Below, one piece after another: positions 2,116 through 61,925 of a stretch of DNA of 64,000 bases; the first letter of the stretch is position 1, and the number at the start of each line of letters is the position of its first letter. The notes beneath the pieces are model-generated. The model was not told where the DNA came from. It ran no database searches and saw nothing but the letters and a program-made list of their open reading frames with translations. Both the position numbers and the translations under genes were made by a program. Source of the stretch: Candidatus Woesearchaeota archaeon (GTDB lineage Archaea > Nanobdellota > Nanobdellia > Pacearchaeales > GW2011-AR1); NCBI GenBank assembly GCA_964613185.1, contig CAZTIP010000001.1:52716-116715 (forward strand), in the 5' to 3' direction.

Positions 2116-5100
2116 TTAAAACCATTTTTTCAAATCTTCTTGTTTCTCGTTATCTTTTCCAAAAATACTTTCAATATACATTTTGGTCAATTCCATACCT
2201 TCTTTCGTATAATGGGAAATATTATAATTTTCTGCCAAATTCATTGCGGGCTCCAAATATTTCTTAATAGACCCCTCACTAATTGTGAAAATTATTTTTC
2301 CCTTACAATTTGTACAAACCCCGGACAAGGGAGGTCTTCTAAATTTATTATTACATGCAACACATCTAAATTGTTGTTTAGCAAACTTTCTTAGATTACC
2401 TCTAATATCTCGGATAAAATGTCTTTCGATAATTAGTCTTGCAACATCTTCCGTATCTACTGCACGAATTTTAGAAACAATTTCCATTTGACCATTAACT
2501 TTATCTTTCATAGTGGGCAAAATTTTGTAAGCCCCATTCAAAACACCAATATTAAAATCAGAAGAATCATGAGTAAATCCCAAATTTACAAAAGGGTTTT
2601 TTCCAGAATTCAATCTATTTTTAACATTATCAATTTTGCATTCGCTAGAGTGTTTTTCTTTTTCGGCTAATTCATAAACTTCCAAAGGATAATGGTCACA
2701 AACCTCCAAATTTAAAATCTGGTCATCGACTTCTCCTGCCCTAATTCTTGCATTTAAAACAAGAGGTGCATCTTGAGTTCCTCCACGATGACTTGGCAAA
2801 AATTTTCTAGAAAAATTAATCAACACATCCATCAACATCATTACGGCAGCCTCATCTCCATCACAATCTCTTCTCATTGCAGCATGCATATAAGGACTGG
2901 CAGTCAATCCTTGAAGCTCATTAAAACCAATTATTCTTCCAATAACTCCTGCACAATTATGAGGTGCCATACAAACAACTAATTGGCCAACCAAATCTTC
3001 ACTAGATTTCAGATTATAATAAGAAGGTAATTTATAAAATTTTTCCAACTCTTCATCAACAAATTTTGAGATATGTAAAAAAATCTTGTCTGCCTTTTCA
3101 TCTGCAGTAACAGGACATGAAGGCAAAACAACATCATGGGGCCTCAATTCTAAAATTTGATCATCTTTAGATAAGATTTCTCCATTTATGTCATGAGTAT
3201 ATCCCAATTCTATTAATTTTTCAACACTTGTTCGAATCTCAAAAGGTTTAAAATGAGTCAAGGGAATTTCAGTACCATCATAACGTATTGTTCCATCTTT
3301 ATTAACAGCTAAATTATATTTCGCTCTCAAAATACCTTTAGATAAATGCTCAAAGTCCCTCCCATCACTACTAGTTCCTCTAATCCCTTTAATCAACGGA
3401 GGTACATCATAAGAATTATAATCCAAAAATTCTGTGGCCTGTTTAAAAAAACTTTTTGAATCAATTTTACGGTAAGTATAATTAACACTAACTTCATGTT
3501 TTTCGCAAGGTTCTTTCAATGTTGTTCTACATTCCCTACAATAATATTTCCGAACAGTTTTATCACCACATTTTTCACAAAGGGAATAGATTGTTTCATT
3601 ACCACACTTACAATAAAAGAGAGGCCAGTCAGATTTTATAAATCCGACCTTAACGGCATCCTGAATACTTCTAAAACGGCCACCTTGTTCTGAAACTGGA
3701 AAAAGCATATTTGGACTCCCAGTCAATTTACGAAGTTTAGCTTTCTCTGGACGACCCATTCTTGTCCCAATAAAATCTCCACTTTTATCCTTAATCCTAT
3801 ATTTAGACAGGCCATTTACAATTTTTAAAACATCGACTTCATCAACCGGATTATTTTTTATTTTCAAAATTTGTTCTTTTAAAGATTCATCTTCAGAAAA
3901 TTCTATACCTAAATTTTTCAGAAAAGGTAATGCATCTTTATTTAGCACAACATTATCCAAAACAACTTCGTGCTCAATTCCTAAAATTTCAAGAGCCCGT
4001 TTAGCTTTCGAATAATTTTCTCTAACCGAATTTTCCCAAGGCAAAACAAGTTTTCCATTTTCATTAAAAGAAATTTCTTTATCTGAAATATTTTCTCTCC
4101 AAACAGCTTTTTGAATCCAATCAATCAAAAAATAAAAGTCATCCTTAGAAATTTGATTCCAATAAAATATATATTTTGGATGTAAGGGTAATAAATATTT
4201 TTCACTTAATTTAATAGCTTCTTCAAAGGAAACATCAAAAGAATCCAAACAAATTTCTTCACCAGTAACTTCCAACTTTTTATCTAATTCCAGTTTCCAC
4301 CATTCTTCAACATAACCAGGTTTTACCAAATTTGCATTACGATCCATAACATCTCCCAAGGGAAATAAAATATCTCCCAAATATATTATTTCTTCAACTT
4401 CTGGATAAATTTTTTTAGATTCTTCAAAATTAGAAATTTTTCTAACAGATCCATCAATTAATTTAACTATAGGTCCATCAATTTGGTCACAGGAAGTAAT
4501 AATACATCCTTTAGTGGGTTTTTCAATCTTTAATTGAGTCCCATGAGATAAAAAACCATTTGAAATCCCCATAGTTGCAGGATGGATTGATGCAGCACTA
4601 AAACCTGCAACTCGGCTTCGCCCATATCGAAATCTAAATCCTCCAGAAACACTTGGATGTCCATAGACTGGACGGCCAGCAACTAAATCTTTGATATAAG
4701 TTGCAACAACATCTGAACTTCCCTTTTCTCTCTTATTATGGATGACCAAATATTCCTCCAAAAAATCCCATCCAGTACACTTCATTCCATTCTTTTTTGG
4801 AGATTTTAAACGGCCCCACCCTTTTCCAGCCTTTTGAGCAAGTCCTTCGCTAAAAGTCAGACACATTCCTCCACGGATAAAATTAGTATGAACTCTTTCC
4901 AAATCCTTAAAATTAGAAACTTCAAATTTTTCAGTAGGGTCACCAGAAATCTGTATAGGTAAGTTCTTTGCTAAAAAATACATTTCTTCTTCAGTTGGAA
5001 AATATTGTAAATTAGTAACTCTTTCATGATAATCTGTATTTTCAGTAATGTATCTTTTAATTTCATCTTCACTCGGATCATATTTAGCATAACCAAAATG

Positions 5101-5652
5101 TTCTCTTAAATAATCAATTAACATCAAAACTAAACATGTTGCAGTCGTTCCAGCAGAACGGATAGGTCCGCTAAAATTAACAATAAAATAATCTTCTCCT
5201 TTTTTCGTTTTTCCAAGCTGAACGCCAGTATAACCTTCAATAGGAGATGCAACAACTCCCAAAGTTAAATATGCAAACCCTACCCTAATCCCTGCATCAA
5301 TAGCTTCAATTTGATTTTCAAATTTATGAAATTTTTCTTCTGCAATTTCACGGGCAATAACAAAACTAACTGAAGTATCTAATTGTCCATGTTCTTTTTC
5401 CAATTCCAACATTCTTTTTGTAATTTCTTTAATTGGCAAATCCGGATAAATTGTCGTTATCAACCCAACAGATTTTTCAGCCATAGTCATTGCCAAAGGA
5501 ATTTCAACTTTATTCTCAGGATCCAACCCCTTAGACCTTGCCTCATTAGCAATTTTATATTCTTCATCAACTTTTTTAATTAAATTATTAAAATAAGTCT
5601 CATCATCCCATCCACAAATAACTTTTTCATTATCTACCATTTTATTTTCCAT
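2116..5652 (-). CDS. polC: DNA polymerase II (PolD) large subunit DP2, with no intein.
   Basis: 1178 aa. The N-terminus MENKMVDNEKVICGWDDETYF is typical of DP2. It carries a Cys-cluster zinc finger (CKCGNETIYSLCEKCGDK...CRECRTT) and a conserved C-terminal catalytic region. It overlaps the DP1 gene at its start, so the two form an operon. Confidence 0.95.
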   Translation of the reverse strand: MENKMVDNEKVICGWDDETYFNNLIKKVDEEYKIANEARSKGLDPENKVEIPLAMTMAEKSVGLITTIYPDLPIKEITKRMLELEKEHGQLDTSVSFVIAREIAEEKFHKFENQIEAIDAGIRVGFAYLTLGVVASPIEGYTGVQLGKTKKGEDYFIVNFSGPIRSAGTTATCLVLMLIDYLREHFGYAKYDPSEDEIKRYITENTDYHERVTNLQYFPTEEEMYFLAKNLPIQISGDPTEKFEVSNFKDLERVHTNFIRGGMCLTFSEGLAQKAGKGWGRLKSPKKNGMKCTGWDFLEEYLVIHNKREKGSSDVVATYIKDLVAGRPVYGHPSVSGGFRFRYGRSRVAGFSAASIHPATMGISNGFLSHGTQLKIEKPTKGCIITSCDQIDGPIVKLIDGSVRKISNFEESKKIYPEVEEIIYLGDILFPLGDVMDRNANLVKPGYVEEWWKLELDKKLEVTGEEICLDSFDVSFEEAIKLSEKYLLPLHPKYIFYWNQISKDDFYFLIDWIQKAVWRENISDKEISFNENGKLVLPWENSVRENYSKAKRALEILGIEHEVVLDNVVLNKDALPFLKNLGIEFSEDESLKEQILKIKNNPVDEVDVLKIVNGLSKYRIKDKSGDFIGTRMGRPEKAKLRKLTGSPNMLFPVSEQGGRFRSIQDAVKVGFIKSDWPLFYCKCGNETIYSLCEKCGDKTVRKYYCRECRTTLKEPCEKHEVSVNYTYRKIDSKSFFKQATEFLDYNSYDVPPLIKGIRGTSSDGRDFEHLSKGILRAKYNLAVNKDGTIRYDGTEIPLTHFKPFEIRTSVEKLIELGYTHDINGEILSKDDQILELRPHDVVLPSCPVTADEKADKIFLHISKFVDEELEKFYKLPSYYNLKSSEDLVGQLVVCMAPHNCAGVIGRIIGFNELQGLTASPYMHAAMRRDCDGDEAAVMMLMDVLINFSRKFLPSHRGGTQDAPLVLNARIRAGEVDDQILNLEVCDHYPLEVYELAEKEKHSSECKIDNVKNRLNSGKNPFVNLGFTHDSSDFNIGVLNGAYKILPTMKDKVNGQMEIVSKIRAVDTEDVARLIIERHFIRDIRGNLRKFAKQQFRCVACNNKFRRPPLSGVCTNCKGKIIFTISEGSIKKYLEPAMNLAENYNISHYTKEGMELTKMYIESIFGKDNEKQEDLKKWF

Positions 5653-7252
5653 TTTTCACAACTTCCTCAATTTTATTCTTATTAAGTTCCTTAACTTTTG
5701 AAGTTTCTCCCTCGCCAGGCAAATCATCTGAAAAATCTAAAATTTTTATTTCCCTAGTTTTTAAATTAAACAAAGGAACTTTACAAGGGTCTGGAACATT
5801 TCCAACTTTTTCTTCAAATGGTGTGATAGATTGCCAACAAGAACTAGCAATTAATAAAATATTATTATAATTTGAAATTTCCAATCGGTGTTGGTCTCCG
5901 GTAGTCACAATATCTGGAATAATATCTATAACCAAAGGGTCTTTATTCTCACAAGGGATATAATCCATTAAACCATGCATAGGTGCCAAATGCCTTCTCT
6001 TCAAAATTTCTTTAACAACAGTAGTAGGGGAACTATGCCCAAAAGTAGTTCTAATAAAAGGAATTTCATCAATTATCCTATTAATACTTCCTCCATGATA
6101 CATTAAAATTTTAAATCCTCCATCAATTTCTACAAGCGAAGGATTTGGAACTAAATGCAGATTTTCAATCTCGTGTAACCCTGGGGCCCATCTATCTCCA
6201 ATAATTGGTTGAGGTTCTCCAACCCAAACAGAATCATGTTGACCAGGACTCATAATCATTTGAACATCTTTCCTAACTAATTTAAAAATTTCTTCAACTT
6301 TCTTATATTGACCTAGTGAAGTTTTTTCAATTAAATGTTTTTCTTGCCCAGGGTAATGACTAACACCATCAATATTATCTCCATTAATAAACAAATATTT
6401 AACCTTTTTAGCAAGTTCTCTCTGTTTTTCATCACCTTCTTCTCCATTCAACCATTTAATAAATTTCAAAATATTTTTTTCCAAAAACATAGTAGAACCT
6501 GCATGTAAATCACTAATAAATGCGACATATTCATCAAATTCACTATATCTTTTCTCAACTAAAGCAGCTTCTGGATAAATAATTTCATTAGCAAAAAGAA
6601 TATCTGAAGTTCCAGTAACATTAAACGCAACAATATCATCTAAAAGAACCTCTTTTGTTTTATCAAATACTTCTTTCTTATTTTGATTAACTAAAACAAC
6701 TGAATTTCCCGTTAAATCTTCAACTTCTAAAAGTAAATTTTTATTTTTAGTAATTCTTTTATTAACTATAGAAACTATGATTGTATAACTTCCCCTATTT
6801 GTTCCTATTTTTCTTATAGAGCTCAAATTTTCAAAATCTTTTTTTTCCAAAATAGATTTCATAGATTCATAGCGCGCACGAAAATGATTTACGAAATCTT
6901 TCACAACCACTTTCTTTTGAGGAAATGCAGGTGCAGAAATTAATTTTAAACGACCATTTTGAACATCGCCAGTCAAATCATTTTTATTCAAATTTTCAGT
7001 TGGTTCAGTATTTTCAATTCCTCCAAATAAATTTTTAATTTCGTCAACATCTTCAATCAAAAAATTCTTAAATTTATCAAAATGTTTTGAAAACAAACTT
7101 TTAGTAATTACTCTTTCACCAATATCTAAATTTCCCAGAACCTCAATAACTCTTTTAGCTCCAGCTTCGTTCAATGTAGATAGTAAATCTAACATTTCCT
7201 TATCTAAAAGAAACCCTTTTCCCATACAAAGTTTTAATATTTCTGATGCCAT
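5642..7252 (-). CDS. polB: DNA polymerase II (PolD) small subunit DP1, a calcineurin/Mre11-like phosphoesterase.
   Basis: 536 aa with phosphoesterase motifs (DLHAGS, GDNIDG, GHHD-like). Its position between orc1 and DP2 matches the conserved archaeal oriC-orc1-DP1-DP2 arrangement. Confidence 0.9.
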   Translation of the reverse strand: MASEILKLCMGKGFLLDKEMLDLLSTLNEAGAKRVIEVLGNLDIGERVITKSLFSKHFDKFKNFLIEDVDEIKNLFGGIENTEPTENLNKNDLTGDVQNGRLKLISAPAFPQKKVVVKDFVNHFRARYESMKSILEKKDFENLSSIRKIGTNRGSYTIIVSIVNKRITKNKNLLLEVEDLTGNSVVLVNQNKKEVFDKTKEVLLDDIVAFNVTGTSDILFANEIIYPEAALVEKRYSEFDEYVAFISDLHAGSTMFLEKNILKFIKWLNGEEGDEKQRELAKKVKYLFINGDNIDGVSHYPGQEKHLIEKTSLGQYKKVEEIFKLVRKDVQMIMSPGQHDSVWVGEPQPIIGDRWAPGLHEIENLHLVPNPSLVEIDGGFKILMYHGGSINRIIDEIPFIRTTFGHSSPTTVVKEILKRRHLAPMHGLMDYIPCENKDPLVIDIIPDIVTTGDQHRLEISNYNNILLIASSCWQSITPFEEKVGNVPDPCKVPLFNLKTREIKILDFSDDLPGEGETSKVKELNKNKIEEVVKNGK

Positions 7253-7347: not shown

Positions 7348-8556
7348 TTAAAGACAAAGAGCTTCAATTAAAATATCTTCAACTTTATTAAATAAATTAT
7401 TAGGTATTGATAGTTTAATTTCTCTAGTTCTACCATGTCTTCCTTTTGAAATAACCTTTGCATTAATCAAACCCAACATATCAATTTCTGCGATAATATC
7501 TGAAATTCTCCGTTGAGTTAGCTTATCTGTTTTAGTTTGGTTACACAATATACCATAATAATTATAGACATCTCCGGTAAAAAAACTAGATTTATCTTTT
7601 TCCTCTTTAGTTAATTGTAATATTGAATAAAGAACTAATTGGAATTGTTTGGGTTCGCTTTCAACAATATCTAAAATTTTATCTCTTTCCATTTTATTAT
7701 TCGCTAAATCTATATAATCTTCTGAAACAGTTTTCTCACCATCTCTTTCTGAAAGTTCTCCTGCAATTCTAAACAAATCTAAGGCTCGCCTAGCATCTCC
7801 ATGTTCTCTAGCTGCATAAGCAGCACATTTTGCAACAACACCTTCATCAATAACACCCTCATTAAACGCTTCTTCACAACGCCCGTTCAAAATATCTTGA
7901 AGTTGAATTGCATTATAAGGTGGAAAAACAAATTCTTCTTCACCCAATGAAGATCTTACTCGAGGATCTATATTTTCTAAAAAAGTAACATCGTTAGAAA
8001 TTCCTATAATCGAAAGCTGTGCATTTTCAAGCTCTTGATTAAGACGCGTAATAGAATACAAAAAACTATCTCCCATTTTCTTAACTGCCTGGTCAACTTC
8101 ATCAAAAATAAAAACAATTAATTGTTTTTTACTATCAACTAATTCTATAAATTTAGACCAAACCTTGTCAGTAGGGAGTCCTGTTGCAGGAACACTACCA
8201 CCTAATTTTTTAATTAATGCTGCTAAAATCCTATATTCTGTATCTGCAACCTTTCTCAGTTTACAATTAATATATTCAAATCGAACTTCAACATTCAATT
8301 CATTAGCTTTTTTAATAATTTCTTCCATAACATATTGAACAGAAAGAGTCTTACCAGTTCCTGTTTTTCCATAAACAAATAAATTACTAGGTCTATCACC
8401 TCTAAGGGTTGATCCTAAAATACTTGCAATAGACTTAATTTGTTCATCACGGTGAGGAATTGAATCAGGATTATAACGGACTTGTAAAACTTCTTTATTA
8501 TTAAAAAGACTGTTATTTATTGCAGAATCAAAAATATCCCCAAGTTCAACACCCAT
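7348..8556 (-). CDS. orc1: Orc1/Cdc6 replication initiator.
   Basis: 402 aa. Walker A motif GKTGTGKT, Walker B motif IFDEVD, an AAA+ core, and a C-terminal winged helix. Confidence 0.93.
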   Translation of the reverse strand: MGVELGDIFDSAINNSLFNNKEVLQVRYNPDSIPHRDEQIKSIASILGSTLRGDRPSNLFVYGKTGTGKTLSVQYVMEEIIKKANELNVEVRFEYINCKLRKVADTEYRILAALIKKLGGSVPATGLPTDKVWSKFIELVDSKKQLIVFIFDEVDQAVKKMGDSFLYSITRLNQELENAQLSIIGISNDVTFLENIDPRVRSSLGEEEFVFPPYNAIQLQDILNGRCEEAFNEGVIDEGVVAKCAAYAAREHGDARRALDLFRIAGELSERDGEKTVSEDYIDLANNKMERDKILDIVESEPKQFQLVLYSILQLTKEEKDKSSFFTGDVYNYYGILCNQTKTDKLTQRRISDIIAEIDMLGLINAKVISKGRHGRTREIKLSIPNNLFNKVEDILIEALCL

Positions 8557-9109
8557 AAAACCACCTTTTATTTAACATAATAAAAAAAATAAACAATACT
8601 ATTTAAATTCTCATATACTTAAAAAATAATAAAATAATTTAATCCTAAAATTCTCTGACCCCTCTATTTCACTTCCAAATAAAATAAATTATAATTTAAT
8701 TTTTATTTTTAATTATATCATTATATAAATTTTTTATTTTAGTTTTTACATTTGCATTAATAATTGATTATTTTACAATTATATACTAGAATATGTATTT
8801 TAGATAATATATAATAGATAATAGATATTTTAATATAACTATTATAAACTAACTATCTTAATATATATAATATATAATATAAATACTTATAAATAAAAAT
8901 TAAAAATAAAAAACAAAAACTTAAGAAAACATTTATAAATTTTTCCAAAAGAAACCATAGGGTCACACTAAAACAAGAATTAAAAAAAAAGAAATCTAAA
9001 ACAAACAAACAAACAATAAATTAGTAAAACAATCAAACAAAACATTCACTACTTAAAATCAATAAAAATTTAAAAGAAACATTTATAAATAATTTCAATT
9101 TAAACTAGT
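8557..9109. promoter_or_regulatory. Candidate replication origin (oriC). The ~550-bp ORF-free, extremely AT-rich intergenic region immediately upstream of orc1 is a likely DNA-unwinding element. It also holds BRE/TATA-like elements.
   Basis: The position is upstream of orc1-polB-polC. It contains long A/T runs and (TA)n / TAATAGA repeats. The motif AGAAA(A)CATTTATAAAT occurs twice, at about 8925-8941 and 9079-9094. The second copy sits about 20 bp before the ATG at 9110 and is a probable BRE/TATA promoter for a leaderless mRNA. Confidence 0.45.
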
Positions 9110-9364
9110 ATGGACAAAAAACCCTTCAAAGCTCTCCTCGGAAAACAATTAGTTACAAAAGAAGGAAGAAAGTTAGGGATAGTAAAAGATATTACTTTTG
9201 AAGCAAGAACCGGAGAACTTATACAAATAATTCTTAAAGATTTAACAACATATACCTCAAATTTATCCTTAGAAAGGACAAAAGACAGGGAGGCATTAAT
9301 ACCTTATAATTCTGTAATCGCCGTTGGCGATTTCATAGTAGTTTCAGAAGAAGATTTATTATAA
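9110..9364 (+). CDS. PRC-barrel domain protein (84 aa).
   Basis: The pattern ...KEGRKLGIVKDITFEARTGELIQIIL... is typical of small archaeal PRC-barrel proteins. Confidence 0.5.
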   Translation: MDKKPFKALLGKQLVTKEGRKLGIVKDITFEARTGELIQIILKDLTTYTSNLSLERTKDREALIPYNSVIAVGDFIVVSEEDLL

Positions 9365-9419
9365 ATCTAAGATTAACAAATTACATAAATTTATAAAGCA
9401 TTTTTATTAAAATAATATC

Positions 9420-9824
9420 ATGGAAGAATTAAGACTAGCGGGATCAAAAATATTGAAGATAGAAGCAGAAAGAAATCCAGAGTTCAGTGGACAAGTGACT
9501 ATGGAAACAAATATAAAACTTCAAGAAGTGGAGTCTATAAAAGAAGTAAAAGATACTCTAAAAGCAGCATATACTTTTGAAGTAAATTATGCAGATTTAG
9601 GAAAAGTAAAAATTGAAGGACAATTATTCATAAAAACAACTTCAAAAGTTGCAAAAGAGCTTCAAAAATCAATAAAAGACAAAAAATATGACAGTCCAGA
9701 AAATATTGCAATAACTAACTTAATAATTCAAAAAGCTTCAATAAAAGCCTTTGAAATAGAAGAAGAATTAGGATTACCAATCCATATAAGACTTCCAACA
9801 GTAGAATTTAAGAAAAAAGAATAA
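9420..9824 (+). CDS. Hypothetical protein (134 aa).
   Basis: Clean ORF with no recognisable motif. Confidence 0.5.
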   Translation: MEELRLAGSKILKIEAERNPEFSGQVTMETNIKLQEVESIKEVKDTLKAAYTFEVNYADLGKVKIEGQLFIKTTSKVAKELQKSIKDKKYDSPENIAITNLIIQKASIKAFEIEEELGLPIHIRLPTVEFKKKE

Positions 9825-9907
9825 TTTTTGACAGTTTAACTAAGAAAATTTATAATAATTTTAATATACTAAACATATTTATACTAAATCATTACTAAGA
9901 TCTTAAA

Positions 9908-9988
9908 GCTCACATCGCATAATGGTATTGCACCAGGTTCGAACCCTGGGTCTTTCGAGACATCCCCGTTCGATTCGGGGTGTGAGCG
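9908..9988 (+). tRNA. tRNA-Ser (anticodon CGA), class II with a long variable arm. No CCA is encoded.
   Basis: Folded by hand. Acceptor GCTCACA/TGTGAGC with discriminator G. Anticodon stem CCAGG/CCTGG with loop TTCGAAC. Variable arm GTCTTTCGAGAC. T-arm CCCCG-TTCGATT-CGGGG. Confidence 0.85.
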
Positions 9989-10035
9989 TAATAATAAATC
10001 CAAAAACATATAAAACAATTAAACTAAAGAGTGAT

Positions 10036-10305
10036 ATGCCAAAAATATCTTCACAAAAAATAGAAAAAATTTCTGAACAAATTTTGTTACATTTATTTAA
10101 ATCATTTCCAAAACAAATTTTTACATCTGAAATAGCGAAAGAGCTTGCAAGAGATGAAGAATTTACAAAAAAATTACTTTTAGAATTAGAAAAAAAGAAA
10201 TTAATTATAAAAATTAATAAAAATTCTAAAGGATTGGAATATTCTAGAAGGTTGAGATGGAGAATTTCAAATAAAACTTATGAAATATACAAAAAACACC
10301 AATAA
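10036..10305 (+). CDS. Small winged-helix DNA-binding protein (89 aa).
   Basis: The ORF-track ORF 9922..10305 overlaps the tRNA, so the start was moved to the internal ATG at 10036 (MPKISSQK...). The pattern ...FTSEIAKELARDEEFTKKLLLELEKKKLI... resembles a MarR/PadR-type wHTH. Confidence 0.55.
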   Translation: MPKISSQKIEKISEQILLHLFKSFPKQIFTSEIAKELARDEEFTKKLLLELEKKKLIIKINKNSKGLEYSRRLRWRISNKTYEIYKKHQ

Positions 10306-10384
10306 TTAACTTTTATTTTTAAAAAATTTAAAATATATTTCTCAAAACAACTAATAATATAAAGTAAATCCCTTTTATTTAATA

Positions 10385-11005
10385 ATGGACCTAATAAAAG
10401 AGGCATTTTTAAAAATAAAAGAAGATATTTCAGAGTTAAGAGATGAAATTACAAAAATTAATAAAAAAATAAACATTTTACATTCTAAAAACAACATTCA
10501 GACAACTCCAACAGACAGACAAACACAAAATCAGACAATTCAGACACAAAATTCACAATTAAACAAAAATTTACACTTAAATCATCAATTCTCCATAGGA
10601 AATGAAGGGGTTCCAACAGACAGACAGACAAACCAACAGACAGACAAACACATAAAAAAAGACCCTATTTCTGAATTTAAACAAGCAAATGAGGTTCTAA
10701 ATTCATTAGATACTATAAAAAAAGGAATAATGTTTAAATTTAAGAGTTTAACACCCCAAGAAATGTTAGTTTTTAGCACATTATATAGTTTGGAAAGTCA
10801 AAACAACGAAACAACTTACAAAACTCTTGCAAAAGAAATAAATCTCAGTGAGTCCTCTATAAGAGATTATATTAATAAATTGATCAAAAAGGGCGTACCT
10901 ATAGAAAAAATAAGACTAAATAATAAAACTATTTTGTTAAAAATCTCTGAAGATCTAAAAACCGTGACTACTTTAGACACAATCATAAAACTACGTGATT
11001 TGTGA
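10385..11005 (+). CDS. Coiled-coil + low-complexity linker + C-terminal winged-helix DNA-binding protein. It is a paralog of 11287..11958.
   Basis: N-terminal heptad-like MDLIKEAFLKIKEDISELRDEITKINKKI. PTDRQT peptide repeats. C-terminal LTPQEMLVFSTLYSLESQNNETTYKTLAKEINLSESSIRDYINKLIKKG. Confidence 0.6.
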   Translation: MDLIKEAFLKIKEDISELRDEITKINKKINILHSKNNIQTTPTDRQTQNQTIQTQNSQLNKNLHLNHQFSIGNEGVPTDRQTNQQTDKHIKKDPISEFKQANEVLNSLDTIKKGIMFKFKSLTPQEMLVFSTLYSLESQNNETTYKTLAKEINLSESSIRDYINKLIKKGVPIEKIRLNNKTILLKISEDLKTVTTLDTIIKLRDL

Positions 11006-11082
11006 CTTCTCGGAACGTTTAATTTAAACGTTACTTTAGACACAATCATTTTATATCAAAAATTCATCAAAATCAATTTAAT

Positions 11083-14295: not shown

Positions 14296-15114
14296 GTGAT
14301 GGAACTTCAAGAATTTTTAAAAAAAATTGAAATAGAATTAAAAATATCTAAAAACTCAGATTATACCTTGAGAAATTATCTTAAATCAAATAAGGATTTT
14401 TTAGAATTTACAAAAAAATCTCCCGAAAATTCAGAACAAGAAGATGTAAAACATTTTATAGCAGAAAATCTCGCAGACAAATCTTCAAACTCTATAATCC
14501 TTTTTTTATCTGCAATAAAATATGCATATTCTTCTGTTTTACAAAAAGACATAACTTCAAATATTAAAAGACCAAGAAAAGAAAAGAGAATTCCAAAAGT
14601 TTTGTCAAAAGAGGAAATAAAAAATTTTTTAGAAGTTCTTCAAAATGAAAAATCAAAATTAATGGTAAGTTTAATTTATGCATGCGGACTTCGAGTTTCA
14701 GAATTAACAAATTTAAAAATTTCTGATTTAAATTTTCCCGAAAAAATTGGATACATTAAACAATCAAAAGGGAAAAAAGACCGATTATTTAATATTCCCA
14801 ATTTTCTATTCGAAGAATTAAAAGACTATACGGAAAAACAAAAAGGAAAAGAATTTTTATTTACTGGAAAAAATGGGAAACTTTCATCAAGAAATTTACA
14901 AAAAATAGTTTCCTCTGCATCAAAAAGGGCAGGGCTTGAAGGAGTCCATTGTCACACCCTAAGACATAGTTTCGCAACACATTTACTCGAGGCAGATACA
15001 GATATAAGGAAAATTCAAGAACTTTTAGGGCACTCCGATTTATCTACTACTCAAATTTATACTCATGTATCTGCAGAAGAATTAAAAAAAATAAAATCTC
15101 CAATAGATTTTTAA
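14296..15114 (+). CDS. Tyrosine site-specific recombinase, XerA/XerC/XerD family.
   Basis: 272 aa. Catalytic signature ...GLRVSEL... then HTLRHSFATHLL... then LLGHSDLSTTQIYTHV, giving the R, HxxR and H/Y residues. Confidence 0.9.
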   Translation: MMELQEFLKKIEIELKISKNSDYTLRNYLKSNKDFLEFTKKSPENSEQEDVKHFIAENLADKSSNSIILFLSAIKYAYSSVLQKDITSNIKRPRKEKRIPKVLSKEEIKNFLEVLQNEKSKLMVSLIYACGLRVSELTNLKISDLNFPEKIGYIKQSKGKKDRLFNIPNFLFEELKDYTEKQKGKEFLFTGKNGKLSSRNLQKIVSSASKRAGLEGVHCHTLRHSFATHLLEADTDIRKIQELLGHSDLSTTQIYTHVSAEELKKIKSPIDF

Positions 15115-17502: not shown

Positions 17503-17904
17503 TTAACGGAAACTCGTTTGTCGCATACTTCGAGCTTTAGAGTCTCCAGGTTTACAAACTTCTTTTCTCCGAGTATCTGCAACAACCAAATTTCTGTCAT
17601 AAGCAACAAAAATCTTTTTTAATTCGTCATCACCTGTAAATTTAAGGATAGCCTTTGCAATCGCAAGTCTTCCTGCTTCAATTTGGCTAGCATTCCCACC
17701 ACCCTTAACATTCAAACGAATATCAAAATTCAATTTTCCCAAAAAATCATCTGCAATGACTAAAGGTTCGTTAATTTCGAGTTGTTGTAAATCAGATAAA
17801 AAAGCTAATGGTCGTTTATTAAAAGTTACTTTTCCAGTCCCTTCTGTAATTGTGGCCTTTGCGATGGCAGTCTTCCGTTTTCCAGAAACAACTATATTAT
17901 TCAT
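17503..17904 (-). CDS. rps9: Ribosomal protein uS9.
   Basis: MNNIVVSGKRKTAIAKATI... and a C-terminal ...KARSMRQTSFR. Confidence 0.9.
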   Translation of the reverse strand: MNNIVVSGKRKTAIAKATITEGTGKVTFNKRPLAFLSDLQQLEINEPLVIADDFLGKLNFDIRLNVKGGGNASQIEAGRLAIAKAILKFTGDDELKKIFVAYDRNLVVADTRRKEVCKPGDSKARSMRQTSFR

Positions 17905-18314
17905 TTAATCAACTCCATAATTTCTTTAATTGTCGAATATTTCATTAGTTTTTTATGGTCAAAAGTTTTAACATTTTTCAAATCAGATTCTTTCAAATCT
18001 CCATTTCCAATATGGCATTTCAATCTCTTAAATGCCTCTCTTCCCTTAGCTCTATCTCTAGGCAACATTCCACGAATCATTCGTTTCAACAACCTATCTT
18101 CTTTACGAATATATTTTGGGCCTTTCAACGAACTTCCACCACCCATTTCTCTTTTTGCAAGAATTTTTTTAGCAAAGACTCTCTTATCTCCAGAAACAAT
18201 TACCTTTTCAGAATTCAAAATATCTACAGAACCACCCTTCAAAAGTTCTTTGGCAACAAAACTTGACATTCGTCCAAAAATTGCACCTTCTCCATCAACA
18301 ATTAATTTATTCAT
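17901..18314 (-). CDS. rpl13: Ribosomal protein uL13.
   Basis: MNKLIVDGEGAIFGRMSSFVAKELLKG... Overlaps the rps9 start in an ATGA arrangement. Confidence 0.9.
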   Translation of the reverse strand: MNKLIVDGEGAIFGRMSSFVAKELLKGGSVDILNSEKVIVSGDKRVFAKKILAKREMGGGSSLKGPKYIRKEDRLLKRMIRGMLPRDRAKGREAFKRLKCHIGNGDLKESDLKNVKTFDHKKLMKYSTIKEIMELIK

Positions 18315-18667
18315 TTTAAAATATTAAAACCATTTAATTCAGGATTTTTCTTCATTTCATCAACAATATAAACAAAACTAGATTTTGCATCTTTAATTTT
18401 TTGGATTGCTTTTTCAGAGGCAGACCAAGCAACAATTTTTTTAGAACTTCCCAAATCCCCTGCACTTAAAATTTTTCCAGCAACTAAAATATCTCCCTCA
18501 ACCATATCCGCTTCTTTCAAATTAATAACTGGCCATCTCCTTTTAGGTCTTGCAAGTTCTTTAGCAACTTCAGGATTAGTTTTTTTTAATTTAATGATAG
18601 TGCTAACTAGTTCAGCATTCATTTTATGCTTCATTCTCTTTTCAATTTTGGTTTTATTTATTTCCAT
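18311..18667 (-). CDS. rpl18e: Ribosomal protein eL18 (L18e).
   Basis: Size, basic composition, and the conserved position upstream of rpl13-rps9. Confidence 0.8.
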   Translation of the reverse strand: MEINKTKIEKRMKHKMNAELVSTIIKLKKTNPEVAKELARPKRRWPVINLKEADMVEGDILVAGKILSAGDLGSSKKIVAWSASEKAIQKIKDAKSSFVYIVDEMKKNPELNGFNILK

Positions 18668-18799
18668 ATTATTTTTTAATTAAATTTTGATTTTCCGACA
18701 ACCGAATTAACGGAGATGGATTCATTGAGAGCCTGCGAACGATGAGTGAACCTTTTCAAAGGTACTTTCGAACCAAGTTCGAATTCTTCGACAACCGAA

Positions 18800-18883
18800 T
18801 GGGCGGAGAAGGATTCGAACCCTCGTAGGCACTAAGCCAATGCGCCCTTAACGCACCCCGTTTGACCACTCCGGCATCCGCCC
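18800..18883 (-). tRNA. tRNA-Leu, class II, copy A. The anticodon loop as written is TTAAGGG, which gives an unusual anticodon AAG.
   Basis: Hand fold of the minus strand. Acceptor GGGCGGA/TCCGCCC with discriminator A. Long variable arm GGCTTAGTGCC. T-arm GAGGG-TTCGAAT-CCTTC. The body is identical to the tRNA-Leu at 32986-33069 except for the 16-nt anticodon stem-loop. Confidence 0.75.
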
Positions 18884-18967
18884 GCGAATTTAATGAAAGG
18901 ATGTTGGACTCGAAGCGATTTCCCATCGCTACTTTCCGGCATCCGCCCGCGAATTTAATCAAACGAA

Positions 18968-19687
18968 TTATTTCAATACTTTAGAGACTTCAGAAAGATC
19001 AACTTTCAAAGCCTTACATGCCTCGGAAAAAATTTCCTTAGCTTCAATTTGTCCCCAAGATTCAATTGCAAAAAACAAATTCTTAGTAGGTTCAACTTCA
19101 ACCCCAGGAAATGTCTCAACATCTTCAGAATCTAAATCTGCAGTTATTGTTTCTTGAATTTTTAAATTTCCAGAAGAATCTAATTTAAATGCCTCTGGAT
19201 AAATCTCTGCGAGTTCATTTTGGAGTTCTCCTTCTTTTGAAATTTTAATTTTAGGAACATGGTGGTAAAAAATTAATCCAGGAATATACTTTGAGTGGAT
19301 AGATCCAGTTCCAATTTTAGCCTTGGCAACAATTTTAAGTTCCTGACCTTCCCCCAATAAAACAATTGGAATTTCAGGATATGTAACAATATCTCCGGAC
19401 AAATCTCCAGAAAGAACCATTGTCCCATCGGCCTTACTTTTTACATGAAGTTTAAATTCAAGAACATCATCTTTCTTAAGTTTTTGATTTTTTAAAGGAA
19501 TAAGACCTAGCCTGTGAGCGATAATTTCATCATAAAGAGAGGAATCATTTTTATAAATATCAACCTCTTCAATTGCCAAAACATTTATCTTTCCAACACT
19601 CCTTCGAACAGCATTAGCTAAACTAATATCTAAATCAGTAATTACTGAAAATCTTTCTCTGTTCTCTTCAATTAATTTTGAAACCAT
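18968..19687 (-). CDS. rpoD: RNA polymerase subunit Rpo3 (D).
   Basis: ...ANAVRRSVGKINVLAIEEVDIYKNDSSLYDEIIAHRLGLIPL... Confidence 0.9.
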   Translation of the reverse strand: MVSKLIEENRERFSVITDLDISLANAVRRSVGKINVLAIEEVDIYKNDSSLYDEIIAHRLGLIPLKNQKLKKDDVLEFKLHVKSKADGTMVLSGDLSGDIVTYPEIPIVLLGEGQELKIVAKAKIGTGSIHSKYIPGLIFYHHVPKIKISKEGELQNELAEIYPEAFKLDSSGNLKIQETITADLDSEDVETFPGVEVEPTKNLFFAIESWGQIEAKEIFSEACKALKVDLSEVSKVLK

Positions 19688-19747
19688 TTTATTTTATCCG
19701 TATATTAGTTTATAAGTTTAGTCATTTAGGCAAACAAATAATTTAAA

Positions 19748-20134
19748 CTATACTCTCCTCCCTCTTCGTCCATGAGGTTTTTTAGGTCCGCCCCGTGGAA
19801 TTGAAGTAATATCTGCCATACTTAAAATTTTAAAACCTTCTTTTGTTAATGTTCTTGAAATTGCAAAAGCTCCGGGACCAATTCCAGTTGCACCAGTTTG
19901 ACCTTTCATACGGATATAAAGTGTATTCATCCTATAATCTCTACAAATATCTTGAATTTTTTTTGCTATAAACATTGCAATTGTGGGGTTTGCCCTCATC
20001 CTATCATGTTTTGTGATTTGTCCACCAGAAACTCGTCCAATGGTATTTCCGGCCAAATCTGTGACTGTTGCGATAGTATTATTAAAACTAGCATAAATAT
20101 TCAAAATTCCTACATTGTCTTCATTTTTTGCCAT
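19748..20134 (-). CDS. rps11: Ribosomal protein uS11.
   Basis: Conserved C-terminus ...TGIGPGAFAISRTLTKEGFKI...PRGGPKKPHGRRGRRV. Confidence 0.9.
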   Translation of the reverse strand: MAKNEDNVGILNIYASFNNTIATVTDLAGNTIGRVSGGQITKHDRMRANPTIAMFIAKKIQDICRDYRMNTLYIRMKGQTGATGIGPGAFAISRTLTKEGFKILSMADITSIPRGGPKKPHGRRGRRV

Positions 20135-20691
20135 TATTTTTTATCCCCCTCATCTGAAACAACATCTTCATTAATTTCCTCAACATCACTTTCATTAACA
20201 TCTTCAGAAATTTCTCCAGTTTTTGGAGTTTTAATTTTCTTTTCTTTCAATAAAATTTTATTTTCTAAATCTAAAGTAACTATAAATGAAGGGACATTAA
20301 CTACCGAGCCATCAACAAGAACATTTTTATGAACAATTAATTGTCTTGCCTGTTTTGGGGTATTTGCTAAACCTTTTTTGAAAACAAAAGTTTCTAATCT
20401 TCTTTCCAACAAATTTTCTTCAGTAAGTGCAAGAACATCAGAGATTGTCACAACTTTAATTCCCATTTTTCCAAGCTTATCAAAAAATACTTGTTGAACT
20501 TCTGGCTCAGAACTAATCAATTGTTTAGCTCTTCTACGAAATCTAGAAATGGAAGACTTAGCTTTCCAAATTTCTCTTTTATTCTTAAGGCCATACTTTT
20601 TAACTAAAACATTTTCTTCTTTAATTCGAGTACTATCAAAAAGTTTCTTTGGCCGATTAAATAATTTCCTTTTCTTTTTTATATCTCCCAT
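20134..20691 (-). CDS. rps4: Ribosomal protein uS4, with an acidic C-terminal tail.
   Basis: ...RKLFNRPKKLFD...ISRFRRRAKQL... and an S4 domain. Confidence 0.85.
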   Translation of the reverse strand: MGDIKKKRKLFNRPKKLFDSTRIKEENVLVKKYGLKNKREIWKAKSSISRFRRRAKQLISSEPEVQQVFFDKLGKMGIKVVTISDVLALTEENLLERRLETFVFKKGLANTPKQARQLIVHKNVLVDGSVVNVPSFIVTLDLENKILLKEKKIKTPKTGEISEDVNESDVEEINEDVVSDEGDKK

Positions 20692-20692
20692 T

Positions 20693-21193
20693 TTATTTCT
20701 TTTTACCTGTCACCCCAGACTTCTTCCGATTTTTACGGAAATTAGATTTAGTTTTTTGACCCCTCACTGGAAGACCTACAGCATGACGAACCCCTCTATA
20801 AGATTTTATTTTTCTCAATCTCTTGATATCAAAATCTTTTCTCAGTTTTAGATCTGCACCGGAAATATGTTTATCCTTACCCTCTTCAAAATCTTTTTGG
20901 CGATTTTTCATAAAAGCAGGAACTGAAGGATTTTTAACAAAATCTTCAAGAGATTTTAGTTCATCCGAACTCATTTCCTGGATCTTTTTCTTTTTATCCA
21001 ATTTTAAAATTTTACAAATTGCATTAGCAAAAGACCATGAAATTCCACGAATTTTTGTCAATCCGGCAAATAACACCTTATCTCCTCGAATGTCCTTTCC
21101 AAGAACTCTTATGAGATTAACATCATCATATTCCTTTTTCTGATATTTCGCTTTCTTTTCTTCATTAGTTTCCATGTTTTTTTCGGTTGCCAT
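20693..21193 (-). CDS. rps13: Ribosomal protein uS13.
   Basis: ...IRVLGKDIRGDKVLFAGLTKIRGI...YRGVRHAVGLPVRGQKTKSNFR. Confidence 0.9.
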   Translation of the reverse strand: MATEKNMETNEEKKAKYQKKEYDDVNLIRVLGKDIRGDKVLFAGLTKIRGISWSFANAICKILKLDKKKKIQEMSSDELKSLEDFVKNPSVPAFMKNRQKDFEEGKDKHISGADLKLRKDFDIKRLRKIKSYRGVRHAVGLPVRGQKTKSNFRKNRKKSGVTGKKK

Positions 21194-59331: not shown

Positions 59332-59808
59332 TTATTTCTTATCGATTTTTTCTTCTTTCTTGGCCAATTGCTTAACATTCTTTTTACCTGCACCAACCAA
59401 AATAATCTTTCCACCTGCCTTTTCCATTTTTTCAATAGCTCCTTTAGTCGCACTCAAAGCGTGAATTTCGGCTTTGAATCCTTCACCCTCACCAAGAATT
59501 TTATGTTTAGAAAAATCCAATTTATCTCCAATTTTCTTGAAAAAATTATCTTTCAATGAAAACAAATTAATTTTTTCATATTTCTTAATTGCCGTTCTTC
59601 GTGAAGTTGCACCTTGTTTTCCAAAATATCTTTTTTTAGGATCGCTTTCTAAAGCAGATTGCTTTTTGTGGTCTGCACGTTTTCCTGTCCCTGCTTTTCC
59701 AAAACCACCTTTATTTCCATGACCTTTGTGTTTCTGCCTAAATCCCCAACCAACTGTTCGAGCTCCACGAATCCGGCTATTTTTTTTACGCTTATGAATC
59801 TTCACCAT
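59332..59808 (-). CDS. rpl15: Ribosomal protein uL15.
   Basis: MVKIHKRKKNSRIRGARTVGWGFRQKHKGHGNKGG... The start was moved so it does not overlap rpl30. Confidence 0.88.
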   Translation of the reverse strand: MVKIHKRKKNSRIRGARTVGWGFRQKHKGHGNKGGFGKAGTGKRADHKKQSALESDPKKRYFGKQGATSRRTAIKKYEKINLFSLKDNFFKKIGDKLDFSKHKILGEGEGFKAEIHALSATKGAIEKMEKAGGKIILVGAGKKNVKQLAKKEEKIDKK

Positions 59809-59809
59809 A

Positions 59810-60160
59810 TTATAACATTCTCCCAACTAATTTAACAATATCTTCATGTTTTCCAAGAATTCCCTTAGGCGTAGAAACTTTAGAACTTTTCTTAAATCCT
59901 CCGACAGGAGGATGTAAGTGGAAAATATTTTCCACTGTTCCAGACCGTTTATCTTTCAAATCCTTAATAAAATTTTCATCAACATTTCCGTAAGCAACCA
60001 TATGGCTAACCGATTTAACCATTCCTATTCTAATCAAATCATCACTATCAATCAAAGTAGATGCGAATTTTTTTCGAAGTTTTAATCGATTAAGAGTCTC
60101 ATTATCTTTCTTTTTATTTTTAACTTGTCCAGAAATTCGGACAACTAATATTGAACTCAT
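59810..60160 (-). CDS. rpl30: Ribosomal protein uL30.
   Basis: Pattern and operon position. Confidence 0.8.
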   Translation of the reverse strand: MSSILVVRISGQVKNKKKDNETLNRLKLRKKFASTLIDSDDLIRIGMVKSVSHMVAYGNVDENFIKDLKDKRSGTVENIFHLHPPVGGFKKSSKVSTPKGILGKHEDIVKLVGRML

Positions 60161-61038
60161 AATTTAACATCTCCTAATTTATTCAAAGCTTCCATACACG
60201 CCTTTGCAGTATTAAAAGTAGTTTTGACTTTTCCAGAACACCTACTATAAACATCATGAACTCCTGCCAAATTTAAAATTTTTTTCATCTCATCTCCGAT
60301 AACTAATCCCGTTCCCTGAGGTGCAGGCATTAGTTTTACAGTTACAGAAGAACATTTGCCAGAGGTTGCAAGAGGGATGCTGTGGTGTTCCTCGCAAGAA
60401 CAATCATAACTTGCACATCCACGATTAATCTTCATGATATTTAATTTAGCCTTTCTAAATGCTTTTTCTTTTGCTGGAAGAGTTTCAGAAGCACGGCCAT
60501 AACCAATACCAACATGACCTTGACCATCTCCAACAACTGCCATAACTCCAAAAGTCAAAACACTACCTTCTTTAGTTTTTTTCTGAGTTTGTCTAAATGC
60601 TCGTCGTTTTCCCCCACCGAATTTACCCTTTGCCTGTCCTATAAATAAAGTGTCTTTCCTCAAATGAGGGATAAGAATATCTACAATTTCTGGTTCCATG
60701 ATTTTTATTCCCATTTCAAGAACTTCATCAATATCTTTAATTTTTCTAGAATTCACATCTTTTCCAAGTTGTGTTTTGGGAATCCATGCTTCAAGTTTTT
60801 CACGTTCTTCACGAGCAAATCTTTCCTCCCTACTTTCCCGTTTATATTCTCCACGACCTTCCTCAATCTTAAAATTTTTGTCGGCGATTGCAGAAACTTT
60901 AGCATCAGCTTCCTTTTCCTTAGCATCAACTATTTTATTCATTTCCTTAAGTTGTTCTTCAGGTTTAATTTCTTCAACTTTCTCTTCAACAGGTTCTTCC
61001 ATAATTTCTTCAACAGGTTTTTTATTTTCTTCAGCCAT
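60157..61038 (-). CDS. rps5: Ribosomal protein uS5, with a ~90-aa E/K-rich N-terminal extension.
   Basis: C-terminal ...VVGDGQGHVGIGYGRASE... is the S5 core. Confidence 0.88.
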   Translation of the reverse strand: MAEENKKPVEEIMEEPVEEKVEEIKPEEQLKEMNKIVDAKEKEADAKVSAIADKNFKIEEGRGEYKRESREERFAREEREKLEAWIPKTQLGKDVNSRKIKDIDEVLEMGIKIMEPEIVDILIPHLRKDTLFIGQAKGKFGGGKRRAFRQTQKKTKEGSVLTFGVMAVVGDGQGHVGIGYGRASETLPAKEKAFRKAKLNIMKINRGCASYDCSCEEHHSIPLATSGKCSSVTVKLMPAPQGTGLVIGDEMKKILNLAGVHDVYSRCSGKVKTTFNTAKACMEALNKLGDVKL

Positions 61039-61039
61039 A

Positions 61040-61522
61040 TTATAGCGATTCTCCTACTTTTACAATAATTTCTTTTAATTCAGGGTTTAAATGTTCTCCC
61101 AATAGTCTTTCTTCTGAAGGAAAGACCTTTTCATTAGCCGAAATTTCTAGGCCTCCATCAATCAAACCCTTAACTACTGCAAAAATTCGAGACCCCTTAA
61201 GTGGACGAGTCATTCCAATATCTATAATGTAATTTCCCTTACCAATTTTTTTAGCAAGCAATTTTCCAGTCAAATAACCTGCAGGTATGGATTTCAAACT
61301 TCCTTCAAATTTCTTATTCCATCCGTTGTTCAATAAATCTTTAGAAGTGACCATCGATAAAACTCTATCTTGTGCCTCATTACTTTCAACAACCTGAACA
61401 ATATAATATTTGTTTGTTTGTCTAACTACAATTCTTGGAAGTCCAGATTTTAATAAATTCTTTCGAAGTTTATAATCCGTTTTATTTTCCCTTCTCCTAC
61501 GTTTCAATGTTCTTAATCCCAT
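61040..61522 (-). CDS. rpl18: Ribosomal protein uL18.
   Basis: MGLRTLKRRRRENKTDYKLRKNLLKSGLPRIVVRQTNKY... Confidence 0.88.
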   Translation of the reverse strand: MGLRTLKRRRRENKTDYKLRKNLLKSGLPRIVVRQTNKYYIVQVVESNEAQDRVLSMVTSKDLLNNGWNKKFEGSLKSIPAGYLTGKLLAKKIGKGNYIIDIGMTRPLKGSRIFAVVKGLIDGGLEISANEKVFPSEERLLGEHLNPELKEIIVKVGESL

Positions 61523-61523
61523 A

Positions 61524-61925
61524 TTATAATGTCTCCAAACTCTCCTTTAAATGTCTTTTACTTTTGAATTTTCTTGCACGAATCATTCTCCTAACTTCCC
61601 TATTCTTTTCCTTATCAATTTTACCAACACGAACAAGACCTCTAACAAACTTACGAAGTTTTCGAGTGATGATTACATATTCTTGTTTTCTATTATTAAC
61701 TTTCATTTTAATTTTTCCAGTTCTTCTCCGATGTTTTCTTCGAACAATTTTCTTACGGCCCTTAACTTCTCTAATTTCAATAGCGCCAGATTTATGAAGG
61801 TCTAAAATATCTTGACGAGTTATAGCTTCCTTAATCTCTTGTAAGTGAGTTTCAACAAAGATAATTCTCCCTTTTCCAACCCCTAAAACCTTCGCAGCCA
61901 ATGCTTTTTTCTTAGCCAATTGCAT
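61524..61925 (-). CDS. rpl19e: Ribosomal protein eL19.
   Basis: MQLAKKKALAAKVLGVGKGRI... Confidence 0.88.
   Translation of the reverse strand: MQLAKKKALAAKVLGVGKGRIIFVETHLQEIKEAITRQDILDLHKSGAIEIREVKGRKKIVRRKHRRRTGKIKMKVNNRKQEYVIITRKLRKFVRGLVRVGKIDKEKNREVRRMIRARKFKSKRHLKESLETL

Follow-up and report, generated by a model that had tools for sequence, protein, structure and literature searches.

The 64-kb window analysed here, a 64,000-nucleotide stretch of contig CAZTIP010000001.1 from a Candidatus Woesearchaeota archaeon, contains a 553-bp gap (positions 8557-9109) directly upstream of the replication initiator gene orc1/cdc6, which raises the question of whether this gap is the chromosome's replication origin and, if so, whether its architecture departs from that of known archaeal origins. 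The first-pass annotation of this DNA had proposed an origin in the oriC-orc1-dp1-dp2 arrangement, had noted no GC-rich origin recognition boxes (ORBs), and had suspected a divergent origin architecture. The proposed anatomy holds, with ORBs, an unwinding element and a conserved module all in place, whereas the absence of boxes was an error and the supposed divergence falls with it: the locus carries two canonical ORBs with a TTCC-N4-GAAA core and a G-string, and belongs to a known origin type. Judged from its sequence, the gap is quite probably the chromosome's functional Orc1-dependent origin, of the widespread Orc1-1/oriC1 type, although the strand composition around it provides contrary evidence that has to be weighed.

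Within the window, to which all comparisons between the gap and its flanks refer, the gap reaches 85.7% A+T against 69.6% overall, carries TA-rich and TAGATAA tandem repeats, and contains a single open reading frame (ORF), a 51-aa TTG ORF on the minus strand. The earlier description of an ORF-free, A/T-rich stretch with such repeats therefore stands, apart from this one short frame. The sole two G/C islands in the gap are the ORBs, 29 bp each and forming an inverted pair, and the elements that they frame, some of them resembling the B recognition element and TATA box (BRE/TATA) of promoters, are as follows:

8653-8681, minus strand: ORB-b, on the orc1 side, TATTTGGAAGTGAAATAGAGGGGTCAGAG, its G-string directed away from the AT core
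8682-8939, no strand assigned: DNA unwinding element between the ORBs, 258 bp, about 92% A+T
8859-8899, minus strand: near-invariant, (TA)-rich, AT-only core TTTTTATTTATAAGTATTTATATTATATATTATATATATTA, 41 bp, conserved in an alignment of 18 loci
8900-8931, minus strand: spacer separating the core from the TATA-like element, rich in T on the orc1-sense strand, as judged from the composition of relatives
8924-8940, no strand assigned: first AGAAAACATTTATAAAT copy, BRE/TATA-like and abutting ORB-a, with TTTATAAA at 8932-8939
8940-8968, plus strand: ORB-a, on the PRC side, TTTTTCCAAAAGAAACCATAGGGTCACAC, inverted relative to ORB-b

The boxes were scored with matrices trained on relatives only (13 sequences for ORB-a, 17 for ORB-b) and run on both strands of the window, with 200 locally shuffled windows as the control. 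ORB-a is the top window match of its matrix at 41.2 bits (shuffled maxima: mean 7.2, highest 19.5), and ORB-b is likewise the top match in the 64 kb at 34.4 bits (shuffled maxima: mean 5.6, highest 23.6), while the best unrelated matches in the window reach about 10 bits; the same scan found no other ORB cluster in the 64 kb. Each box consists of a core, TT(CC/GG)A-N3-GAAA, followed by GGGGTCA, and the two are mirror-oriented, with their core ends pointing inward and their G-strings outward. ORB-a carries the mini-ORB core TTCCAAAAGAAAC, of the TTCC-N4-GAA type that Matsunaga et al. described as invariant in the Pyrococcus ORB and mini-ORB (PMC1904270), whereas the ORB-b core is a clade-wide variant, TTGGAAGTGAAAT; the G-rich extension 3' of the core, GGGTCACAC and GGGGTCAGAG, keeps one register in the two boxes and throughout the relatives. 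The core spacing of ORB-a is identical to that of the Pyrococcus mini-ORB TTCCAGTGGAACT (PMC1904270), and ORB-a agrees with the Sulfolobus mORB GATTTTCAGATGAAACG at 11 of 17 positions (PMC3089459).

Between the boxes, the interval 8685-8884 stands out: no other 200-bp duplex of the 64 kb is as unstable, its value being -185 kcal/mol against a mean of -239.5 (standard deviation 11.3) and a next-lowest value of -208. The first-pass annotation had judged the repeats here suited to a DNA unwinding element. The AT core occurs once in the window, 40 nt from ORB-a, and hardly varies throughout an entire DPANN clade. Read along the orc1-sense strand, the 18-locus alignment gives a fixed order of inverted ORB-a, BRE/TATA-like element, T-rich spacer, and then the near-invariant TTTTTATTTATAA followed by TATATTATATATTATATATATTA; summed over 62 related spacers, this strand holds 1525 T and 932 A. 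An Rfam scan of 8300-9400 at E values up to 1 returned no match, so that no known RNA accounts for the conserved core.

Comparison with orthologous intergenic regions, which the first-pass annotation had named as a way of checking its proposal, shows the module upstream of orc1 to be conserved. Species-representative genomes bearing the labels Pacearchaeota, Woesearchaeota or Nanoarchaeota supplied 26 orc1 loci, with Orc1 63-86% identical, and nearly all of these loci carry ORB-a, the TATA-like element, the core and ORB-b upstream of orc1, and usually a third box, ORB-c, as well. A test independent of orc1, in which a 35-nt pattern of the AT-only core was searched alone in a metagenome collection, matched at least 120 contigs, of which 80 loci were fetched; viral contigs gave 0 matches. 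In 60 of the 62 fetched loci with at least 700 nt of downstream sequence, orc1 lies downstream of the core on the same strand, its start a median of 292 nt after the core, and the Orc1 proteins of core-found loci are 55-86% identical to that of the window. The inverted ORB-a is found 39-57 nt (median 45) from the core in 70 of 77 loci. With matrices for all three box classes, an inverted box upstream of the core is present in 60/64 loci, one or two direct boxes downstream in 55/64, and both in 54/64, and wrongly oriented boxes occur in none of the 64, against a background of 1 match per 18 kb.

Some variation among these loci deserves separate mention. A CG-containing motif (TCGACGA, TCGTCGA or TCGAGG) recurs in the origins of relatives, in genomes in which CpG is rare; it sits between ORB-b and ORB-c in loci L002-L023 and after the TATA-like element in several of L047-L099. 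Locus L043 carries the core without ORBs. In locus L036 (positions 3300-3950 of the 41.7-kb contig SDBT01001455.1), the same core is enclosed by a perfect pair of inverted ORBs, TTTCCATCGGCAAGTTAGGGTGAGAGGG, and orc1 is absent from the surroundings; around it lie small genes, all in one orientation, that match neither Pfam nor PHROG, together with genes for a ParB-like protein and for a NucS_C-like one. This contig looks like a mobile element carrying a host-type replicator, and a module without orc1 would fit a functional origin served by Orc1 in trans.

The gene order around the gap is equally stable, and comprises the following window genes:

2116-5652, minus strand: dp2, large subunit of DNA polymerase D (Pfam PolC_DP2_N, PolC_DP2_central and PolC_DP2_cat, E 1e-78 to 1e-107)
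5642-7252, minus strand: dp1, small subunit of DNA polymerase D (Pfam DNA_pol_E_B)
7348-8556, minus strand: orc1/cdc6, initiator gene of the Orc1-1 type (Pfam Cdc6_C, Cdc6_lid and AAA)
9110-9364, plus strand: PRC-barrel gene (Pfam PRC), divergent from orc1 and first of a conserved gene set

Downstream of orc1, dp1 is found in 72 related loci and dp2 in 55, and a divergent PRC-barrel gene stands upstream of orc1 in 76 of 90 loci; the synteny kept in relatives consists of two blocks on opposite sides of the module, one with g203, HTH206, g127, g134 and PRC, the second with orc1, dp1 and dp2. Together with the window genes, this confirms the likeness to the oriC-orc1-dp1-dp2 order around the Pyrococcus origin that the first-pass annotation had pointed out.

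The initiator itself scores 424 bits against NCBIfam TIGR02928, and among solved structures it comes closest to S. solfataricus Orc1-1 (2QBY_A, E 2.5e-102) and to A. pernix ORC1 (2V1U_A, E 1.3e-95), both of them initiators with solved ORB-DNA complexes (2QBY_A, 2V1U_A). The alignment retains the TQRR recognition helix, the GRxG(R/K)T wing and a TGL stretch, the last of which would be the counterpart of residues G120/L121 in the initiator-specific motif (ISM) of Sso Orc1-1. On the strength of this homology of the winged helix and the ISM segment to the solved complexes, the cognate Orc1 is predicted to bind the ORBs specifically. In complete Nanobdellota genomes, moreover, the ORC1/Cdc6 orthogroup is single-copy (bioRxiv 10.64898/2026.05.13.725050). 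The promoter of orc1 lies between its start codon and ORB-b, and its parts, as read from the sequence, are:

8561-8618, minus strand: orc1 promoter and leader
8561-8565, minus strand: Shine-Dalgarno-like GGTGG in the orc1 leader
8600-8607, minus strand: orc1 TATA box, TTTAAATA, 51 nt ahead of the ATG
8608-8618, minus strand: orc1 BRE, within the conserved GTATATGAGAA

The conserved promoter block GTATATGAGAATTTAAATAG spans 8600-8618, and the form (c)aaGTATATGAAAGTTTAAATAG is kept in most relatives. ORB-b stands 36 nt upstream of this block and 97 nt from the orc1 start, a position that would permit Orc1 to regulate its own gene.

The other repeated element in the gap consists of two copies of (A)GAAACATTTATAAAT, at 8924-8940 and 9074-9090, 150 bp apart, which the first-pass annotation had taken for possible mini-ORBs or BRE/TATA elements. 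The repeat is barely above chance, with 3 matches at two or fewer mismatches against a mean of 0.58, a count that 3 of 100 shuffles also reach. GAAA-N2-3-TTTATAAA, however, lies 26-32 nt before the ATG of about a dozen window genes, a spacing that indicates leaderless mRNAs; examples are two genes that end at 11898 and 15889 and one that starts at 15939, and the identical 14-mer GAAACATTTATAAA precedes the first of these. The motif AGAAACATTTATAAAT is therefore the BRE/TATA promoter consensus of this genome for leaderless mRNAs. As a mini-ORB, AGAAACATTTATAAAT was rejected, since it has no TTCC...GAA core and serves many genes as their promoter consensus; of the two earlier alternatives only the promoter one stands. 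The remaining expectation, that one copy drives a leaderless PRC-barrel gene, is likewise upheld:

9074-9090, plus strand: second copy, BRE/TATA promoter of the leaderless PRC-barrel gene, with its TATA box at 9082-9089 (TTTATAAA), 28 nt before the ATG at 9110, as at other window genes

Relatives show a TATA-type element, tttataaa, at the matching position before the PRC-barrel gene. The first copy has a less conventional setting. What relatives conserve of it, when read toward orc1, is (A)AAG-N-TTTAWAAA(G), the TGGAAA end of ORB-a contributing BRE-like purines; T-runs and the AT core follow it, with no ORF. It may act as a promoter that fires a short transcript into the unwinding element, possibly (and this is speculative) aiding its opening; alternatively it may be a site for TBP/TFB in competition with Orc1, and because the element abuts ORB-a the two bindings should exclude each other. 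As a third reading, it may belong to the T-rich strand available to Orc1 after melting.

According to its published definition, an archaeal origin adjoins the initiator gene and has ORBs in inverted orientation flanking an AT-rich unwinding element (PMC4010727, PMC12141716), and with its ORBs, its unwinding element and its adjacency to orc1 the locus fits that definition. If Sulfolobus oriC1 and Aeropyrum Ori1 are taken as models, each ORB would bind one Orc1 monomer with defined polarity, and the monomer would bend and underwind the DNA; the (TA)n core would then melt, and Orc1 would load MCM onto the melted core. The T-rich strand beside the core may be held by Orc1 after melting, in keeping with the preference of A. 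pernix Orc1 for T-rich single strands (PMC8287685).

A further ORB-like box lies outside the gap, within the conserved gene set on the PRC side:

10588-10616, plus strand: third ORB-like box, ATTCTCCATAGGAAATGAAGGGGTTCCAA, inside the 206-aa helix-turn-helix (HTH) gene 10385-11005, in the orientation of ORB-a

This box (TTCTCCATAGGAAATGAAGGGGTTCCAA; ORB part TTCCATAGGAAATGAAGGGGT) is the third-best match in the window, at 19-20 bits, and codes for SIGNEGVP in a low-complexity linker, after which an (ACAG)n run follows. It scores at least 15 bits in 21 of 41 loci that bear the gene, always oriented as ORB-a. In 10 of 10 pattern-matching HTH sequences the Ser codon is TCC (8% usage) and the Gly codon GGG (16% usage), although these codons were fixed in the search pattern, so that the count is no independent test. 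The conservation suggests a constraint at the DNA level, and the box may be a distal Orc1 site. There is precedent in Pyrococcus dp1, which holds a Cdc6-bound ORB cluster in its coding sequence (PMC1904270); inside the dp1 genes of the window and of the 72 loci, the matrices found no such cluster.

What the anatomy supports, the strand composition does not. Raw GC skew over the whole window follows gene orientation, and was therefore replaced by plus-strand counts at fourfold-degenerate sites, over a range of 17.8 kb to the left of the module (including a 9.3-kb extension from an identical Logan contig, L027:1-9295) and 55 kb to the right, about 73 kb in total; for related loci the range was 6-10 kb per arm, in about 37 loci in total. 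A bidirectional origin that shapes composition should flip the skew, a behaviour typical of single-origin archaea with skew, though not strictly defining. Such turns are seen next to cdc6 in Pyrococcus (PMC4010727) and in the DPANN archaeon Forterrea (PMC5905446).

No such turn is seen here. On the plus strand, fourfold AT skew amounts to +0.33 for the left arm and +0.26 for the right one, with no flip at 8.8 kb; A exceeds T by +0.1 to +0.45 in all 4-kb bins except the last, and the sign and size are the same in genes of either strand (dp2 has 59 GTT and 8 GTA codons, a plus-strand gene 31 GCA and 3 GCT). GC skew at fourfold sites (GC4) is weak, at -0.08 left and +0.09 right, with a shallow, non-significant trough near 16.5 kb; in a change-point test the best splits, at 38-40 kb and at 16.5 kb (likelihood ratio (LR) 7.0-7.4), fall below the 95th percentile of gene-order permutations (7.7), and a split at the origin gives an LR of 3.5. 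In 18 related genomes G exceeds C and T exceeds A along the orc1-sense strand on each arm, whether all sites are counted or fourfold sites only, the latter irrespective of the direction of the gene, and 19 independent metagenome loci share the disparity, with GC4 above zero upstream in 19/19 and downstream in 17/19; all-site skew in relatives reaches +0.4 or more, with G>C on the orc1-sense strand on both sides. Gene orientation points the same way, with 68% of right-arm genes on the minus strand, directed at the module and head-on to a rightward fork, among them two clusters:

17901-21193, minus strand: ribosomal-protein/RNA-polymerase cluster L13, Rpb3, S4, S13, transcribed toward the module
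59332-63811, minus strand: ribosomal-protein (spc) cluster L15, S5, L18, L32e, L6, transcribed toward the module

All of these observations weigh against a conventional bidirectional origin in the gap. The lack in the window of ORB-c and of the TCGnCGA motif, both of which are present in most relatives, also counts against the gap as an origin. The skew analysis that the first-pass annotation had envisaged as a check, run here locally, thus lends the origin no support, with no polarity switch at 8.8 kb or in the related loci. Bidirectional firing is not supported by composition, which suggests instead that on either side of the module forks run toward orc1 and beyond it, in the sense of its transcription; alternatively, fork direction may not be what sets the skew in this clade. 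The conflict with an origin at this locus is softened by the limited view of about 73 kb and by the rarity of peaked skew in archaea, which was found in only 18 of 224 genomes (PMC7111523).

Several explanations compete with a conventional origin on these facts. One is that the module binds Orc1 without being the usual start and instead serves in autoregulation, as a divergent promoter region or as an origin that lies dormant, with bulk replication beginning elsewhere or by a different route and forks passing through from the PRC side. The uniform skew through the locus agrees with this, as do the placement of ORB-b (and of ORB-c in relatives) directly upstream of the orc1 promoter and the overlap of ORB-a with the BRE/TATA-like element; dormant orc-adjacent origins and origin-independent replication are also documented in other archaea (PMC4595724, PMC5663688). 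A purely regulatory role, however, calls neither for an AT core of 41 bp that is invariant and keeps a constant distance to an inverted ORB nor for the least stable duplex of the window. Moreover, with Orc1 single-copy, a second Orc1-type origin would have to share the protein, and the 64 kb contain no other ORB cluster, while the orc1-less copy of the module on the mobile-element-like contig resembles a replicator; we regard this explanation as unlikely. Far less credible still, to the point of being nearly negligible, is a divergent, ORB-less origin in which the two AGAAA(A)CATTTATAAAT copies would serve as mini-ORBs: their 150-bp separation is what speaks for it, whereas canonical ORBs exist, the motif has no TTCC...GAA core, its repeat count is near chance, and AGAAA(A)CATTTATAAAT is a promoter consensus found 26-32 nt upstream of many ATGs.

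The uniform skew can also be accommodated with the module as the origin, if replication is effectively one-way or the terminus adjoins the origin, so that forks exit via orc1-dp1-dp2, make a full circuit of the small chromosome and return from the PRC side. One-way forks would make the orc1-sense strand the leading strand everywhere and thereby enrich it in G and T on both sides, and the observed skew has the sign expected for a leading strand in the orc1 direction, the same on both arms, in the window and about 37 relatives, for either gene orientation and at all sites. The co-orientation of 67% of extended-window genes and of both ribosomal-protein clusters with the orc1 direction, the single-copy initiator and the presence of a XerA gene about 5 kb from the module are further points in its favour, and there is a precedent in small Microgenomates genomes from the Candidate Phyla Radiation (CPR), whose whole-chromosome one-strand G/C disparity has been read as mostly unidirectional replication (PMC7143001). 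Against it stand the ORB layout, mirror-symmetric like that of bidirectional origins, the weak GC4 of the window, the extent of the view (about 73 kb from a single genome and, in the others, 6-10 kb on each arm, so that a switch may lie farther out), and the Thermococcales-type dif core (ATATAA-N6-TTATAT), whose matches in the window, including those near the XerA gene, are at chance level only. To our knowledge, moreover, no archaeal chromosome replicates in one direction. One-way replication is improbable for this chromosome, and the corresponding proposal for the clade (Pacearchaeales/Woesearchaeales-like Nanobdellota), namely a single Orc1-type origin that is essentially one-way or adjoins the terminus, is similarly doubtful. 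A functional Orc1-dependent origin in the gap upstream of orc1 remains the preferred interpretation.

Set beside characterized systems, this origin most closely resembles Sulfolobus oriC1 and A. pernix Ori1, where polar, inverted ORBs likewise flank an AT-rich element directly upstream of the initiator gene (ORB3-DUE-ORB2, with the DNA unwinding element (DUE) between the boxes, next to orc1-1; PMC12141716). The initiators belong to the same clade, the mini-ORB core resembles the Sulfolobus mORB (PMC3089459), and the unwinding element contains a sequence-specific element in both cases, ucm in Sulfolobus and the invariant AT core here. The differences lie in the host, which is AT-rich and mesophilic; in the unwinding element, which measures 258 bp against about 130 bp for the whole ORB3-DUE-ORB2 unit; in the TTGGAG core variant of ORB-b; and in the BRE/TATA-like element between ORB-a and the core. 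The core here is purely A/T and (TA)n-like, and is at most a candidate ucm or binding site for a UBP-like protein.

With Pyrococcus and the Thermococcales, the locus shares the gene order oriC-cdc6-dp1-dp2, the TTCC-N4-GAA spacing and an extra ORB in a neighbouring coding gene (PMC1904270), and several relatives carry the exact Pyrococcus-type TTCCAGTGGAAAT. The extra ORB lies, however, in the HTH gene on the other side of the origin and not in dp1, there are no arrays of many mini-ORBs here, and the skew switches at the Pyrococcus oriC but not in this clade. Candidatus Forterrea (DPANN, Diapherotrites) also combines a small genome with an origin beside cdc6 (PMC5905446), yet its cumulative GC skew turns at cdc6, whereas here the skew is unchanged through the orc1-adjacent module. 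The CPR Microgenomates (Ch65, Collierbacteria, Beckwithbacteria) resemble this clade as organisms of episymbiont type with small genomes in which one strand is G- or C-rich irrespective of gene orientation (PMC7143001); they differ in being bacteria with DnaA-type origins, and in that their disparity extends over whole closed chromosomes, against up to 73 kb here.

The neighbourhood on the PRC side adds observations of its own. The PRC-barrel, 134-aa, 127-aa winged-helix-like and 206-aa HTH genes (9110-11005) form a conserved set divergent from orc1, matched in 40-77 loci; no function is assigned to the set, and its constant placement hints at a connection with replication or division. A 19-nt palindrome, AACGTTTAATTTAAACGTT, lies at the 3' end of the HTH gene between the two copies of a 17-18-nt direct repeat, ACTTTAGACACAATCAT (10970-10986 and 11033-11050); this arrangement may represent a terminator, a site of recombination or the border of an inserted element. 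Genes without Pfam match follow at 11.3-14 kb, and an archaeal XerA tyrosine recombinase is encoded at 14299-15114 (NCBIfam NF040815, 230 bits, above the cut-off), in the same position in 5 of the 5 related loci that reach this far. The Pfam-less genes, XerA, the 18-nt repeat and the palindrome make 11.3-15 kb a candidate integrated element.

No paper describing this origin module for this clade was found in the literature. The complete Nanobdellota genomes that have been reported were rotated to ORC1 by convention, with neither skew nor ORB analysis and neither term in the text (bioRxiv 10.64898/2026.05.13.725050), so that the decisive whole-genome skew computation is apparently still missing from the literature. 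A strand bias that does not turn at the sole recognisable origin is a real anomaly. If the clade did replicate essentially one-way, one physical strand would be leading throughout, an archaeal counterpart of the one-strand disparity of CPR Microgenomates, and the promoter-like element and the T-rich flank would be candidates for the source of origin asymmetry. For a large, uncultivated group of archaea, the module provides a sequence-level definition of oriC, consisting of ORB matrices, a fixed spacing between ORB and core, and a searchable 35-nt core, and it indicates that an unwinding core composed of A and T only can be conserved as strictly as a protein-binding site.

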